Assembly (NCBI RefSeq): GCF_002854065.1
Contig: NZ_CP024147.1
Source of the DNA: Escherichia coli
Lineage (GTDB): Bacteria; Pseudomonadota; Gammaproteobacteria; Enterobacterales; Enterobacteriaceae
Strand: one strand, 5' to 3'
DNA length: 64,000 nucleotides
Numbering within the stretch: position 1 is the first letter of the stretch; each line of letters begins with the position of its first letter. The notes under the pieces were generated by a model. The model did not search any database. It worked only from the letters and a program-made list of their open reading frames with translations, and was not told the DNA's origin. Positions 5,768 through 43,084 of the stretch are shown here, in pieces. The position numbers and the translations under genes were made by a program.

Positions 5768-6413
5768 GTCGAAAATGATTGTGCGCACCAAATTTATTGA
5801 TCGCGCCTGTCACTGGACCGTGGTGATTTGCTTCTTCCTGGTGGCGCTGTCCGGGATTTCGTTCTTCTTCCCGACGCTGCAATGGCTGACGCAAACCTTC
5901 GGTACGCCGCAGATGGGACGTATTTTGCACCCATTCTTCGGCATTGCGATTTTCGTCGCACTGATGTTTATGTTTGTGCGTTTTGTGCATCACAACATCC
6001 CGGATAAGAAAGATATTCCGTGGCTGTTGAACATTGTCGAAGTATTAAAAGGCAATGAGCACAAAGTGGCGGATGTCGGTAAGTACAACGCCGGGCAAAA
6101 GATGATGTTCTGGTCGATCATGAGCATGATTTTCGTGCTGTTGGTGACCGGGGTGATTATCTGGCGTCCGTACTTTGCGCAGTACTTCCCGATGCAGGTT
6201 GTCCGTTATAGCCTGCTGATCCACGCGGCTGCCGGTATCATCCTGATCCACGCCATCCTGATCCATATGTATATGGCATTCTGGGTGAAAGGATCGATTA
6301 AAGGGATGATCGAAGGGAATGTGAGCCGTCTCTGGGCGAAGAAACACCATCCGCGCTGGTATCGTGAAATCGAGAAGGCAGAAGCGAAAAAAGAGAGTGA
6401 AGAAGGGATATAA
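5760..6413 (+). CDS. fdnI: Formate dehydrogenase-N gamma subunit (cytochrome b556)
   Basis: Start chosen at ATG 5760 ([19 protein letters not shown]...), giving 217 aa. It overlaps the fdnH stop (ATGAGTAA). Hydrophobic, His-rich heme-binding helices. Confidence 0.9.
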
Positions 6414-7388: not shown

Positions 7389-8399
7389 TTAGCGACGGAA
7401 ATCAATCACCATACGGGCACGGATTTTGCCTTCTTCCATCTCGGTAAAGATGGTGTTGATGTCCGCTAACGGACGCAGGGCGACTTTCGGCACCACTTTG
7501 CCTTCGGCCGCAAACTGGAAGGCTTCGGTTAGATCCTGGCGCGTGCCGACCAGCGAACCGACCACTTCAATACCATCCAGCACAAGGCGTGGGATGTCCA
7601 GGCTCATAGATTCCAGCGGTAGACCGACAGCCACAACACGACCGCCTGCACGGACAGCATCAACTGCCGAGTTAAACGCCGCTTTAGCTACCGCTGTCAC
7701 CACCGCGGCGTGAGCGCCACCGGTTTTATCCTGCACAATTTTGGCGGCGTCTTCGGTGCGTGAGTTAATCGCTAAATCTGCGCCCATTTCGGTTGCCAGT
7801 TTTAACTGCTCATCATTGACATCAATGGCGATCACTTTCGCGTTAAAGACATTCTTCGCGTATTGCAGGGCGAGGTTACCCAGACCGCCAAGACCGTAGA
7901 TAGCAATCCACTGACCGGGACGAATTTTTGACAGTTTAACGGCTTTGTAGGTGGTGACCCCCGCACAGGTAATGCTGCTGGCCGCCGCCGAGTCCAGACC
8001 ATCTGGCACTTTTACCGCGTAATCGGCGACCACGATGCACTCTTCCGCCATCCCGCCATCAACGCTGTATCCGGCATTTTTAACTGAACGGCAGAGCGTT
8101 TCGTTACCACTGTTACAGTATTCGCAATGACCGCATCCTTCGTAAAACCACGCCACGCTGGCACGATCGCCTGGTTTTAATGAAGTAACACCAGGGCCAA
8201 CTTCTGCCACCACACCGATGCCTTCATGGCCCAGAATTACGCCAGTTTTGTCACCAAAATCGCCATTCTTAACATGAAGATCGGTATGACATACACCACA
8301 ACACTCCATTTTCAGCAGGGCTTCGCCATGTTTCAGTGAGCGCAGTGTTTTATCCGTAACGTCAACATGATGATCCTTCGTAACAACTGCAGCCTTCAT
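7389..8399 (-). CDS. adhP: Zn-dependent alcohol dehydrogenase, propanol-preferring
   Basis: Start taken at [11 protein letters not shown] (336 aa). GHEGIGVV and CGHCEYC zinc-ADH motifs. Confidence 0.9.
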
Positions 8400-26698: not shown

Positions 26699-26718
26699 TT
26701 TAAATAACAAAATCCTAA
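26699..26718 (-). promoter_or_regulatory. GAD box (GadE binding site) upstream of gadB
   Basis: Minus-strand sequence TTAGGATTTTGTTATTTAAA is an exact match to the 20-bp GAD-box consensus, about 80 bp upstream of the gadB start. Confidence 0.65.
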
Positions 26719-37097: not shown

Positions 37098-37544
37098 AAA
37101 TGTTCCTCTTCTTATTGTACTTAATTCCAAAGTAATTTTACGAAGAGAAATAAGTGGATGTAAGTGAAGTTAGTCACATAAAGAGATAGCAGATTTAGCT
37201 AAAAAAAGGGAAATAACAGTCCATAAAGCGTTGACATTACTTTCTGTTCTACTAAGTAATTTCTCGCCGATAAACAACTAATCTATTGATATTTAATAAA
37301 TTATTGTATTTTACTGACAAAATGCCGAATTGAGATCATAAATAATCATGCAATAGGTTATGCAAATGCATAAATATGTGATGAATGTCACTTATTTATT
37401 TCAATAAATATATCGCCTAAAAACAACGCGGGGCAAGGAATGGCTGCCCCATTTAATTCTTACGTAGCGTGTGTGGTTGACTACCCGTTAGCAAATAATC
37501 AAATAGCTAAAGCACTCATCGTGTTGTCCGGTAATGACTCCAAC

Positions 37545-38048
37545 TTATTGATAGTGTTTTATGTTCAGATAATGCCCGATGACTTTGTCATGCAGCTCCA
37601 CCGATTTTGAGAACGACAGCGACTTCCGTCCCAGCCGTGCCAGGTGCTGCCTCAGATTCAGGTTATGCCGCTCAATTCGCTGCGTATATCGCTTGCTGAT
37701 TACGTGCAGCTTTCCCTTCAGGCGGGATTCATACAGCGGCCAGCCATCCGTCATCCATATCACCACGTCAAAGGGTGACAGCAGGCTCATAAGACGCCCC
37801 AGCGTCGCCATAGTGCGTTCACCGAATACGTGCGCAACAACCGTCTTCCGGAGCCTGTCATACGCGTAAAACAGCCAGCGCTGGCGCGATTTAGCCCCGA
37901 CGTATCCCCACTGTTCGTCCATTTCCGCGCAGACGATGACGTCACTGCCCGGCTGTATGCGCGAGGTTACCGACTGCGGCCTGAGTTTTTTAAATGGCGG
38001 AAAATCGTGTTGAGGCCAACGCCCATAATGCGGGCGGTTGCCCGGCAT
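37545..38048 (-). CDS. insB: IS1 InsB (transposase C-terminal part)
   Basis: 167-aa [19 protein letters not shown]... typical of IS1 InsB. A6C-type frameshift heptamer (minus strand AAAAAAC, plus 37985..37991) sits at the insA/insB junction. Confidence 0.9.
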
Positions 38049-38242
38049 CCAACGCCATTCATGGCCATATCAATGATTTTCTGGTGCGTACCGGGTTGAG
38101 AAGCGGTGTAAGTGAACTGCAGTTGCCATGTTTTACGGCAGTGAGAGCAGAGATAGCGCTGATGTCCGGCAGTGCTTTTGCCGTTACGCACCACCCCGTC
38201 AGTAGCTGAACAGGAGGGACAGCTGATAGAAACAGAAGCCAC
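37967..38242 (-). CDS. insA: IS1 InsA (transposition repressor / transposase N-terminus)
   Basis: 91-aa [27 protein letters not shown]... with zinc-finger Cys pairs. Confidence 0.9.
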
Positions 38243-38275
38243 TGGAGCACCTCAAAAACACCATCATACACTAAA

Positions 38276-39037
38276 TCAGTAAGTTGGCAGCATCACCGTG
38301 TTGTCCGTGTTCATACCGGTGTGCCTTTGACAACGGTACTCCTTAGAAACTCTCTTCGGACTGTTGCCGAAATGTTTGCGGAACGCATAAATAAAATAAG
38401 ATGTACTGGCATAACCACATTGTTCGGCAATTTTATTGACTGAACCTTCTACGCGTATCAAATTTTTTGCGTGCTGCATTCTGGCATCTAAAAGAATCTG
38501 TGAGAATGTCGTTTGCTCTTGCTTAAGTTTTTTCTTCAACAGGCTTTCACTGATGTACAGGCAGTCACAAATATCTTTCAGCTTCCATGGGTGCGCCAGC
38601 TTCATGTTGACAATATTTCTCACTTTCCCGGAAACGGATAGCACACCGTTAGTTAATAGTGTAATGAAACCTTTGCATGCGGCAAAAATAGACAGGCAAG
38701 AAAAAAGCAAAAGTTCTGAAAAATTATGATGATTGCGTTCTTCCGAGTTGAGATAAGCAATCATTTCATTAAGCAATCCAGTCGGTACATTAGAAGCACG
38801 TAAAAACTTCGCAGGAACAGGCACCGTCACTGTCTGGATGTTAGTGCATTGTAGATATTTTTTAATGGTATTTTCATTAAATCCGATTTCTTTAAAATGC
38901 CGCTCATAAGGTTCAAAATGCGTACGAACAGCGTTATCTACCATCAGGATCTCGCCGTCAGAGAAGGCGTAATCTTTATCTAAAATGTTAGCGTTGAAGG
39001 CATGATGAATAAATATAACAGAACAAACGAGCGACAT
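38276..39037 (-). CDS. ydeO: AraC-family acid-resistance regulator whose last 6 codons are replaced by IS1-encoded sequence
   Basis: 253-aa ORF. Reading frame crosses the right TSD into the IS1 end, ending …HTGMNTDNT-VMLPTY*. Skipping IS1 and one TSD copy, the uninterrupted frame would end …DNT-MSALAI*. Confidence 0.8.
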   Translation of the reverse strand: MSLVCSVIFIHHAFNANILDKDYAFSDGEILMVDNAVRTHFEPYERHFKEIGFNENTIKKYLQCTNIQTVTVPVPAKFLRASNVPTGLLNEMIAYLNSEERNHHNFSELLLFSCLSIFAACKGFITLLTNGVLSVSGKVRNIVNMKLAHPWKLKDICDCLYISESLLKKKLKQEQTTFSQILLDARMQHAKNLIRVEGSVNKIAEQCGYASTSYFIYAFRKHFGNSPKRVSKEYRCQRHTGMNTDNTVMLPTY

Positions 39038-39111: not shown

Positions 39112-39309
39112 TCAGTCTTGCAAACTATTGATAATGAAATGTGTAAGATCTCTTGCAATGCGACCCATTTCTGAAATGCCCAGCTGATCAATTGCCGAAA
39201 AAATGGCTATCAACGTAAGGGTCAGTAATAAGACAACCACAATTACAAACATGATTTCTTTATAGTTGTCTCTTTGCGTGATTTTGTTTTTCACTGTGGT
39301 CGAATGCAT
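39112..39309 (-). CDS. safA: Small membrane protein, PhoQ-activating connector (65 aa)
   Basis: MHSTTVKNKITQRDNYKEIMFVIVVVLLLTLTLIAIFSAIDQ… with a single TM helix, upstream of ydeO. Confidence 0.8.
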   Translation of the reverse strand: MHSTTVKNKITQRDNYKEIMFVIVVVLLLTLTLIAIFSAIDQLGISEMGRIARDLTHFIINSLQD

Positions 39310-39420
39310 TTCAAATATGTTTATTTAGCGGATAACGTTAAAAATCGTTAATCAGTATGCTTAATATAACAGGCTGGAGAAAAGAGGAAATAGGACTGGT
39401 GCTTCAGTACTGAGCGGAGT

Positions 39421-39438
39421 TTCTTACAGCTGTAGGCA
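39421..39438 (-). promoter_or_regulatory. EvgA-type box upstream of safA-ydeO
   Basis: TTCTTACA-GC-TGTAGGCA resembles the EvgA inverted-repeat consensus TTCYTACA-N2-TGTARGAA, about 110 bp upstream of safA. Confidence 0.5.
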
Positions 39439-39556
39439 GAAGTTTATATCTTATAGTATGTAGTTTAATTTAATCCATGTGAGCAAATTGCGCGATAATA
39501 GTCAATGAGGAATTCTTCTGCTGTGCGGATGACAGCAGAAGAAATGAGAAGAGGCA

Positions 39557-41836
39557 TTAATTTGATGGTTCTAATTCAACCGGAATACTTTTATAGCCAG
39601 GAATGCCACTTAATGGATCGTGGTTATCAAGTGTTAGCATGTGATTCGATTCTGGAAAATAGGTCACCAGTGAGCGGTCAGCCATAGGGTAAATGACCAC
39701 TTTTAATCTATCCATGCGGCGTGAGCTGCGCTTACCGTCTGGCGTAAGCGCAATAAGATTAACTCTTTCGCCGTTTTTTACACGGCAAATTTTAGCTTGT
39801 TTAGCACTCATAAAGACCACATCTCGTTGACCGAATACCCCTCGATAACGATCATCCATACCATAAATCGTCGTGTTGTACTGATCGTGACTGCGTACTG
39901 TCGCCATGACCAGCTTACTGTTAAACGCTGAAGAGGGATCTTCTAACAGCCCTTTGCTGGTAATGAAATTAGCCTTACCTGACGGCGTCATCCAGCGCCT
40001 TTCAGCAGCTGCATTTATCAGGTGAAAACCTCCAGGATGTCGGATGCGCTGGTTATAATCGGCGAACTCTGGCAGCACAGCTTCAATGTCATTGCGAATG
40101 CGATCATAATCTTCCACCAGATACTCCCAGGCTACCACGCTCTGGGGTAGTGCTGCCTGCGCGATTCCCGCGACCACTGCACACTCTGATTTCAGCATTA
40201 CATCGGCGGGTTTTAACACGCCACGCGAGGCATGAATCATCGACATTGAATCCTCAACGGTTACCGCCTGCGCACCGCTTTTTTGCATGTCAATCTCGCT
40301 ACGTCCCAGAACCGGCAGAATATAGCTATGCCGTGCGGTCAGCAGATGAGAGCGGTTAAGCTTAGTGGCTACGTGTACCGCCAGATCTAATTGCGTTAAC
40401 GGTACAGCGCTCGCTTCCCGATCTGGCATTGCCAGTGCAAAGTTGCCCCCCATGCAGATCAATGCTCGAGCCTGCCCTGAACATATTGCTTGCATGCTGG
40501 CAATTGCAGCATGTCCAGGTGCTTGAGGTGGTGTGAAGCCATAGCGCTCACCCAGGCGAGCCAGAAACTCTGCAGACGGTTTCTCGGTGATACCGACGGT
40601 TCGGTCGCCCTGTACATTAGAGTGGCCACGTAGTGGGCAGATACCCGCACCAGGCTTGCCAATGTTACCTTTCATCAACAGCAGATTGACCAGTTGCTGT
40701 ACATTCTGGGTACCATGTTCGTGCTGAGTGATCCCCATTCCGTAACAGATAATGGTGCGTTCGGCAGCGGCATATGCATCAGCCAGTTCGGCGATTTGTG
40801 TCTGACTTAGTCCAGAAATACGTTCGATATCTTTCCACTCGGAATTGAGAACGTCACGGCGTAGCTCGTCAAAGCCGACGGTATGCGTTTGAATAAATTC
40901 GTCATCCAGCAATGAGGGCCGACCTGCGGCACTTGCAGCATCATCGCGCTCAATTAACAGGCGCATCATCCCCTTGAGCAACGCCATATCGCCACCAATG
41001 CGCACGTTGTAGTAGGCACTGGCCAACTGAGTCTCAGAGTTCGTCAGCATTTCAAACGGGTTTTGCGGTGCGGTAAATCGCTCCAGGCCACGTTCCTGTA
41101 GAGGATTGATGGCGATCATTTTCGCTCCCCGTTTCACTAAAGCGCGCAACGAAGTCAGCATGCGAGGGTGGTTTGTACCAGGGTTATGCCCAATGCAAAT
41201 GACTAAATCGCACTTCTCAAAGTCTTCCAGCAACACGGTCCCTTTACCTACACCGATACTCGCTGCCAAACCCACGCTTGTCGGTTCATGGCACATGTTG
41301 GAGCAGTCGGGAAAGTTATTGCTCCCGTATTCACGGGCAAAAAGCTGATAAAGAAAGGCAGCTTCATTGGAAGTGCGGCCCGAAGTATAGAATTCAACCT
41401 GATTGGGATCACTATAGCTTTGAAGGCGTGCGCCAATTTCATTGAAAGCTTGTTGCCAGCTTAATGGCTTGTAACAGTCGCTGACGGCATCATATTTCAA
41501 AGGCTGAGTGAGTCGCCCCGCAGCCTCAAGCTCGTGGTCTCCCCAGGTAAGTAATGATTGAACCGTATTCTCAGCAAAGAAAGAGGCGTTTACCTGCTTA
41601 TCCGTGACTTCCCAGGCGATTGCTTTTGCGCCGTTTTCACAAATGTCGAATGACGCACTGTGCTTAGGATCTGGCCATGCACAACCCGGACAGTCAAAGC
41701 CCTCTGGCTTATTCATGTCAAACATGGCAATAACATCCTGGCGTATATCCATCTGCTTACGTACTGCATTCGCTACGGATTTAACAGCACCCCAACCACC
41801 GGCAGCACCCTGGTAGGATTCAATTTTTTTCTTCAT
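39557..41836 (-). CDS. ydeP: Molybdopterin oxidoreductase (FdhF-like, acid-resistance associated)
   Basis: 759-aa ORF with an N-terminal Cys cluster and molybdopterin-binding domains. Confidence 0.9.
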
Positions 41837-42079
41837 CTACTTATCCTGTGTGGAAATGAATTATTAGGATTTGTAATAGCGATGATGCACAGTACATACA
41901 AAGGGATTATCGCCAACATGGATATATAAGAGTAGGGGACTACTCTCTTTCTATTTTTAATCTATTATCGTTAAACCATAGATTAAATACGATAAGGTAA
42001 GCATCATCTCTCATAGTGTTTAAATTAACATATTTTTCAATATAAAAAATAAGACTCTGGCTTCAATTGTGCGCGGATT

Positions 42080-42097
42080 TTCTTACAGGTGTAGGAT
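42080..42097 (-). promoter_or_regulatory. EvgA-type box upstream of ydeP
   Basis: TTCTTACA-GG-TGTAGGAT, about 245 bp upstream of the ydeP ATG; same half-site pattern as the safA site. Confidence 0.5.
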
Positions 42098-42169: not shown

Positions 42170-43084
42170 TTATTCATAGATAAAAGTGACACCAATGACT
42201 GACTGGACGGTTCCGGCTGAAACTTTGTTCCCTGTTTGTCCATAGGTTGCGCTTAAACCCAGAGGTACTTTGCTTTTATTTACTGTCCCCAGGGAGACAT
42301 TTTCTCCCGTAGCCAGTATTTTTCCATTACGCATCAGAGAGACACCCACTCCCGATGCTTTTGTTGCATCTGGTGCTGTGTTAGCAAACACTTGTTTAGC
42401 ACTGTCAGTGGTAGCACCCGAAAGATAAAATGAGAGCTTTTGTTCACTTGAGCAATATACGCCAAGGGGGATTTCTGCGCTTCCAGGAAAGTCCGGGAGA
42501 TTCACGGTGACATTACGACTATCAACAGTGCAGCCGCCTGTTGGCATAACAACACTGTTATTTGAAATAATATTCCACGTAAAATTACGCGGATTTCCGC
42601 TTCCTAACGTGGCAATTTTATACATATGAATACGGGCAATAACTTCCCCGGCTTTTATGACAACTCCACCGGCCGCCCCGACTGGGGTAATATAGAGTTT
42701 TAACGGTAATGGCATCGGTGTCTTATCACCAATATCCAATACGTTGGTATTTGTCGTCAACGGGAAGGGGTAGGTCACATTATTCCAGTACAGCGATCCT
42801 TTATATGACTGTAGAGAGCCTGCGAAAGCTGAGCCTTGTACCAGGTTTATATGATCAGTGTCGTACCAGCCGCCGTAATCATTCCAGCAACTTATATGCT
42901 GAGACAAGTCTACAACCAGATTCTGGCCCGGCTGTATTACAGGGTCGAGATTAACATAAACAGAGGTTGTACCAGCTCCAATACTTGACCCGCCATCGAC
43001 ATTACAACTGAAGGCAAAAACTTTGCCTGCCATTAATAGAAGATAAATACCGAACAGGACCTTTATACTGATTGTTTTACCCAT
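42170..43084 (-). CDS. ydeQ: FimH-like fimbrial tip adhesin
   Basis: 304-aa ORF with signal peptide, aligning along its length with FimH as I recall it (…[14 protein letters not shown]…, C-terminal …GVTFIYE). Confidence 0.75.

Follow-up and report, generated by a model that had tools for sequence, protein, structure and literature searches.

The NarL and NarP regulators recognize sites of the '7-2-7' type, and BvgA of Bordetella, the closest characterized homologue of EvgA, binds inverted heptads of the TTTCCTA type. These systems resemble the EvgA boxes in having inverted half-sites spaced by 2 bp, in using a phosphorylated NarL/FixJ-type dimer and in lying upstream of the core promoter, and the BvgA heptad in addition resembles the TTCCTA core of the EvgA boxes. 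They differ from them in half-site sequence and in regulon. For EvgA itself, the box is reportedly an 18-bp inverted repeat, TTCPyTACA-N2-TGTPuGAA, and is said to be found upstream of ydeP, b1500 (safA), yegR, yfdX, yfdW, and emrK. According to the secondary literature, every directly EvgA-regulated gene has an EvgA site. The same sources describe the regulation of ydeP and emrKY as direct, the safA-ydeO promoter as bound directly by EvgA, and yfdX and yfdWUVE as induced through EvgA binding of inverted repeats. Our full-text search of the secondary literature returned nothing relevant on the consensus or on exact site sequences. One further published site bears comparison: the 18-nt inverted repeat TGTAAG-N6-CTTACA of UvrY/SirA, found at csrB and csrC. 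It too belongs to a NarL-family response regulator and is an 18-nt palindrome of the hexamer CTTACA/TGTAAG, but its half-sites point the opposite way and are separated by 6 bp, as opposed to 2 bp in the EvgA boxes.

The DNA analyzed here, a 64-kb stretch from Escherichia coli referred to below as the window, can be aligned collinearly with positions 1.566 to 1.588 Mb of E. coli K-12 at ~98.5% identity. It carries two 18-bp palindromes, one in the safA-ydeO promoter and one in the ydeP promoter (Table 1). The original prediction had placed EvgA-type 18-mers with a common half-site pattern at these two positions, and both are found exactly there. The pattern is shared as well: TTCTTACANNTGTAGG, the 14 bases common to the boxes, has two matches with no mismatches on either strand of the 64-kb window, namely the boxes themselves, and there is no third match elsewhere in the window when up to two mismatches are tolerated. 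With two mismatches allowed, shuffled controls gave an expectation of 0.32 matches, and at least two matches were obtained in 6 of 100 shuffles. In gene orientation, the safA box reads TGCCTACA-GC-TGTAAGAA and the ydeP box ATCCTACA-CC-TGTAAGAA; they precede the ATG codons of safA and ydeP by 111 bp and 243 bp, respectively. Each agrees with the perfect palindrome at 14 of the 16 specified positions, and in both it is the perfect half-site that faces the promoter. The boxes had been described as paired, which is misleading: each is a single operator belonging to its own promoter, and 2.66 kb separate them.

Table 1. Positions of the operators, promoter elements, genes, and other features discussed in the text (numbering of the 64-kb window).
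Feature	Position	Strand	Details
EvgA-type operator, safA-ydeO promoter	39421..39438	(-)	Top strand TTCTTACAGCTGTAGGCA; matrix score 21.4 bits
EvgA-type operator, ydeP promoter	42080..42097	(-)	Top strand TTCTTACAGGTGTAGGAT; matrix score 23.6 bits
Predicted extended -10, safA promoter	39363..39371	(-)	TGtTATATT, 50-58 nt downstream of box
Extended -10, ydeP promoter	42022..42030	(-)	TGtTAATTT, 50-58 nt after box; -16..-8 of start 42014
safA module, box to predicted start	39351..39420	(-)	70 nt; in-register similarity to ydeP promoter
ydeP module, box to start	42010..42079	(-)	70 nt; counterpart of safA module
Hairpin just past ydeP stop	39513..39543	(-)	-17.5 kcal/mol, z=-4.1; between ydeP and safA units
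ydeP CDS	39557..41836	(-)	759 aa; molybdopterin oxidoreductase family; EvgA-activated acid-resistance gene
safA CDS	39112..39309	(-)	65 aa; first gene of safA-ydeO operon; Pfam SafA, 154 bits
ydeO reading frame	38276..39037	(-)	253 aa; AraC family; native down to 38298
ydeQ	42170-43084	(-)	
IS1 copy	37530..38297	(-)	768 bp; 9-bp target duplication GGACAACAC at 38298-38306 and 37521-37529
GAD box (GadE site)	26699..26718	(-)	TTAGGATTTTGTTATTTAAA; 79 nt upstream of gadB ATG

We scanned K-12 regions with TTCTTACA-N2-TGTAAGAA and found the box also upstream of emrK/evgA, frc, yfdX, and yegR. All of these comparator matches are intergenic, and every other EvgA-activated operon checked has one; yfdX has two copies, 20 bp apart, and the frc box is a perfect palindrome match (16/16). 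The search is partly circular, in that its palindrome was taken from the half-sites of the window boxes themselves; the locations of the comparator sites, upstream of exactly the EvgA-dependent operons, are independent of it. Symmetrizing the seven sites gave the consensus TTCYTACA-N2-TGTRGAA, which agrees in sequence, in the genes concerned and in upstream position with the EvgA box as reported. In K-12, the safA box is found at 1,584,071-1,584,088 with the same sequence, and the ydeP box at 1,586,730-1,586,747 with a different distal half, AGCCTACA as against ATCCTACA in the window (AGCC versus ATCC). The window allele is one base nearer the palindrome (14/16, compared with 13/16 in K-12); this is allelic variation and no new feature.

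A weight matrix built from five sites at other K-12 operons scored the ydeP box at 23.6 bits and the safA box at 21.4 bits. The original prediction had proposed such a scan of the window, and it separates the boxes clearly, the next-best position in the 64 kb reaching 7.9 bits. In 300 random 64-kb windows drawn from a first-order Markov model, 21.4 bits was never attained, the top score being 19.9. When one operon at a time was left out and 114 kb were scanned, the boxes withheld from the matrix still scored 21.7 (safA) and 23.7 bits (ydeP). With the full matrix, only one additional position in the 114 kb, within K-12 mdtE, attains at least 12 bits, and the region upstream of K-12 gadE has no position of 9 bits or more for an EvgA-type box.

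According to a published methods section, the 5' leader of ydeP begins at -178 relative to the start codon, which sets the transcription start at 42014 and the box at -83 to -66, centered at -74.5; the placement of the box at -74 hinges on this leader length. The conserved TGnTAATTT of ydeP then lies 7 nt upstream of the start. Across the six promoters examined, a -10-like hexamer is found 49 to 59 nt past the box in five (safA, emrK, yfdX, yegR, and frc). The exception is ydeP, where the TGn-preceded TAATTT at 53 to 58 nt agrees with TATAAT at just three of six positions. By its -10 element, safA transcription would start near 39356, for a predicted leader of about 47 nt. A consensus scan gave no canonical -35/-10 pair for safA and, for ydeP, one alternative sigma-70-like match, TTGAAG-16-TATATT, which would set the box at about -65 to -48. 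We disfavor this pair as the real ydeP promoter: its -10 is lost in a divergent Escherichia locus (L006, described below), where TGnTAATTT is kept, and the downstream -10 is further favored because the 178-nt leader fits TGnTAATTT too. The box palindrome was also considered as an RNA hairpin or terminator acting on ydeP read-through, and this was rejected because its arms are 2 nt apart, too short for a loop. A separate, stable hairpin lies just past the ydeP stop (Table 1). Its stem is conserved in L006; it is without a T-tract and was not called by the terminator scan.

The promoter segments are widespread in the species. A search of 5,426 complete E. coli genomes recovered the 96-bp segment of the safA promoter from 4,788 and the ydeP promoter segment from 5,311. 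The half-site cores are invariant in the five E. coli strains sampled, the most divergent ones included. In L006, whose YdeP shows 95% identity, the only change to the cores CCTACA and TGTAAGAA is a single A-to-G at core position 8, a substitution that is also present in the emrK site. Otherwise, the box substitutions in the sampled strains and in L006 are confined to the 2-bp spacer and the outermost distal bases, and both TGn-TAWWTT elements, at safA and at ydeP, vary in L006 solely at the 'n' base. Beyond Escherichia, no position above 9 bits was found at the ydeP homologue loci of Edwardsiella, Yersinia rohdei, Raoultella, Tatumella, or more distant bacteria. The Edwardsiella locus is without a box even though its YdeP homologue has 85% amino acid identity. 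This absence outside Escherichia fits the literature, in which evgAS and safA-ydeO are reported as specific to E. coli and Shigella.

The likeness of the two promoters is not confined to the operator. They are alike over ~88 bp in register, box included, and in the 70 nt downstream of the boxes 43 of 70 positions are identical in an ungapped alignment (z=7 against dinucleotide shuffles); no other non-self pair of 70-mers in the window matches better. The blocks in common are AnTCCGCnCA, TGAAGC, AGTCYTATTT, and TGTTAwwTTAA, the last containing the extended -10 TGnTAWWTT. TCCGCnCA lies at about -63 to -56, TGAAGC at about -51 to -46, and AGTCYTATTT at about -42 to -33. The emrK promoter has AGTCCT at exactly this offset, and the yegR promoter has AATCCT. 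The positions shared by the safA and ydeP copies are the better conserved ones in orthologues (77/86 compared with 38/54; Fisher p=0.006). We also considered the AGTCYT block, at offset 24 to 29, as an orphan third EvgA half-site and rejected this, as it scores about 1 bit on the half-site matrix, the level of background.

Such extended similarity raises the question of whether the boxes are alike by common descent only, a cassette having been duplicated on either side of ydeP with the palindrome carried along as a passive relic. The in-register match far past the box (43/70, z=7) and the arrangement of the two copies as direct repeats flanking ydeP speak for a duplication. However, the same palindrome is found at unlinked EvgA-dependent promoters whose flanks are far less similar or not similar at all, the cores of the boxes are invariant while the neighboring bases vary, and the positions that the two copies share are those preferentially conserved between lineages (p=0.006). 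Moreover, duplication and function can coexist, and we regard a purely passive origin as highly improbable. Chance occurrence in AT-rich intergenic DNA has still less to recommend it. With two mismatches, the 16-position pattern did give at least two matches in 6 of 100 shuffles, but both matches in the window are exact, their 21 to 24 bits exceed the maximum of 19.9 bits in 300 random windows, and both boxes precede known EvgA targets, with a conserved -10 at one and the same distance; we give this explanation almost no credence.

That the boxes serve another regulator of the LuxR/NarL family, such as UvrY, RcsB/GadE, or NarL/NarP, and not EvgA, is an idea with some initial appeal, given that the UvrY site is built from the same hexamer and that acid resistance involves several members of the family, among them GadE, which has its GAD box in this very window. 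Yet the UvrY arrangement is everted with a 6-bp spacer, and TGTAAG-N6-CTTACA has no match in the 64-kb window with up to two mismatches; UvrY-type operators were rejected on the ground that this arrangement is not present in the window. The GAD box, for its part, is an unrelated asymmetric 20-mer. In contrast, CTTACA-N2-TGTAAG recurs specifically upstream of EvgA-dependent operons, and the lineage distribution of the box tracks that of evgAS. An assignment to another family member thus appears very unlikely.

The 18-bp palindromes are almost certainly the already described EvgA operators of ydeP and safA-ydeO, a reading to which we attach a probability of roughly 0.93. We favor it because the motif recurs at all other EvgA-activated K-12 operons checked, because the box is sensibly placed with respect to the ydeP transcription start, because the cores are kept and variation falls on the spacer and outer bases, and because the ydeP homologue loci outside Escherichia are without a box. 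Motif recurrence, position, core conservation, and lineage distribution all support the original assignment of EvgA-type boxes to the two transcription units. The regulation is textbook-level and already known, and the boxes add nothing to knowledge of EvgA.

On the best reading, the ydeP and safA promoters would be activator-dependent sigma-70 promoters with a weak -35, switched on by a phospho-EvgA dimer. EvgA is a response regulator of the NarL/FixJ type with a LuxR-type helix-turn-helix and is phosphorylated by EvgS at mildly acidic pH. A presumed phospho-EvgA dimer would then occupy the 18-bp repeat, each subunit contacting one half-site (TTCYTACA / TGTRGAA). The target would be a sigma-70 promoter in which the -35 is poor and the -10 is of the TGn extended type, with the center of the repeat ~74 bp ahead of the start. 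Bound there, EvgA would recruit or stabilize RNA polymerase, most likely in class I fashion through the alpha C-terminal domain. The separate boxes would serve one ydeP and the other safA-ydeO. Downstream, YdeO would activate gadE, elsewhere in the genome, and GadE would act at the GAD box of gadBC in the window; SafA would activate PhoQ.

The original prediction held that the window contains much of the acid-resistance cascade. This is true of ydeO, safA, ydeP, and gadBC but not of evgAS and gadE, neither of which is in the 64 kb, and the window therefore represents the middle tier of the cascade (ydeO and safA) together with outputs (ydeP and gadBC). The SafA protein has the role of a connector from EvgS/EvgA to PhoQ/PhoP. 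The GAD box predicted at gadB was confirmed in position and equals the published site, matching at 20 of 20 positions TTAGGAttTTgTTATTTAAa, the asymmetric 20-bp sequence (GadE/RcsB site) described upstream of gadA or gadB.

An IS1 lesion in ydeO had also been predicted. There is indeed an IS1 in ydeO, but it merely swaps the last six codons, downstream of the helix-turn-helix. The element sits six codons ahead of the ydeO stop and supplies the last six codons and the stop itself. The fused YdeO comprises 247 native residues and a replacement tail, VMLPTY, with its length still at 253 aa, and it wholly retains the helix-turn-helix domain (Pfam match to residue 231). The insertion lies downstream of both promoters and leaves the boxes untouched, and its junction with ydeO was found in none of the 5,426 complete E. 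coli genomes. Because IS1 changes only the last six residues of YdeO, the acid-resistance cascade is probably still wired up in this strain.

The identification of the boxes is useful for annotating the window, and it means that, at ydeP and at safA-ydeO, the cis-regulatory inputs to the EvgA branch of exponential-phase acid resistance are still intact in the strain. A more tentative proposal is that the two promoters share an entire ~88-bp cassette, within which the operator, three blocks, and a TGn extended -10 keep a fixed register. We consider this possible, though rather doubtful. The AGTCYT block in particular may be what is left of a cassette duplication, or else an unrecognized element. 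If the cassette reading is true, the EvgA regulon may have expanded partly through the copying of promoter cassettes, and at least one of the blocks may be an unrecognized cis-element, a second contact for EvgA or for RNA polymerase. Feedback repression by YdeO and PhoP has been reported in the literature for the ydeP and safA promoters, and a block may alternatively serve such YdeO- or PhoP-dependent repression. The blocks of the cassette are concrete targets for mutation in dissecting EvgA activation, or feedback, at ydeP and safA.

A module roughly 88 bp long is common, in register, to the safA and ydeP promoters; it comprises the 18-bp EvgA-type operator (the box) and the 70 nt downstream of it. 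Of these 70 bases, 43 are identical between the two copies (z=7), and the bases common to both are preferentially kept in L006, a locus from a divergent Escherichia lineage (p=0.006). The copies are arranged as direct repeats, one on each side of ydeP. The hexamer that follows each box is found at the identical offset in the K-12 emrK promoter, as AGTCCT, and in the yegR promoter of the same strain as AATCCT; its matrix score ruled it out as an EvgA half-site. At the ydeP box itself the window differs from K-12 by a single base, 42096, in the distal half-site (ATCC vs AGCC in gene orientation), and the ATCC allele is one position nearer to a palindrome than the K-12 form.

Features at the minus-strand genes ydeO, safA and ydeP
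Feature	Coordinates	Remarks
IS1 in ydeO	37530-38297	768 bp; target duplication GGACAACAC
Direct repeat TTAACG-N4-TTAACG	39336-39351	10-bp period; immediately downstream of predicted safA start
Promoter module, safA copy	39351-39438	
Hexamer AGTCCT/AGTCTT, safA	39392-39397	24-29 nt downstream of box
Hairpin after ydeP	39513-39543	3' of ydeP stop; stable, -17.5 kcal/mol; lacks a T-tract
Promoter module, ydeP copy	42010-42097	
Alternative sigma-70-like promoter match TTGAAG-16-TATATT	42039-42066	upstream of ydeP
Hexamer AGTCCT/AGTCTT, ydeP	42051-42056	24-29 nt downstream of box

When 114 kb of DNA was scanned with the weight matrix, the sole match of at least 12 bits outside a promoter was TTCTTACGCATGAAAGAA, an EvgA-like, 16-bit sequence in the mdtE coding region (K-12 3,659,886-3,659,903; 7887-7904 of the extracted K-12 region L004). 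The matrix scan gave no site comparable to this one upstream of gadE.

Each of the two promoter segments (safA and ydeP) matched six plasmid records. On plasmid pKFu015_2 (NZ_CP147132.1, L026 1-1611), ydeP has just 34 bp of promoter, around the start and the -10, and an IS3000/Tn3-like transposase gene lies directly upstream, at the place expected for the EvgA box. No EvgA-type box was found at the ydeP loci of Edwardsiella species (L007, L008 and L016), where YdeP is 85% identical. Contig JARKOR010000108.1 (L005), binned as 'Candidatus Nanosynbacter', carries a ydeP-safA locus that is 99% identical to that of E. coli and has both boxes, and is therefore probably a contaminant of the bin.

The IS1 insertion point is 6 codons short of the ydeO stop. 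With this insertion YdeO retains its length and HTH domain, the only change being the gain of a VMLPTY tail. A search of complete E. coli genomes (n=5,426) did not find the junction in any, which places the source strain outside this collection; it might belong to an IS1-rich lineage resembling Shigella. The counterpart of the ydeP hairpin in L006 (about 6290-6320) has a stem identical to that of the window, with a 7-nt loop that is nearly the reverse complement of the window loop (CATCCGC against ACGGATG); from the sequences, this looks like an inversion of the loop inside the palindrome.

The -10 of the alternative ydeP promoter match is absent from L006. The TTAACG repeat near the predicted safA start is mostly kept there, and could be a site for a winged-helix response regulator, e.g., PhoP, for which repression of safA has been reported.
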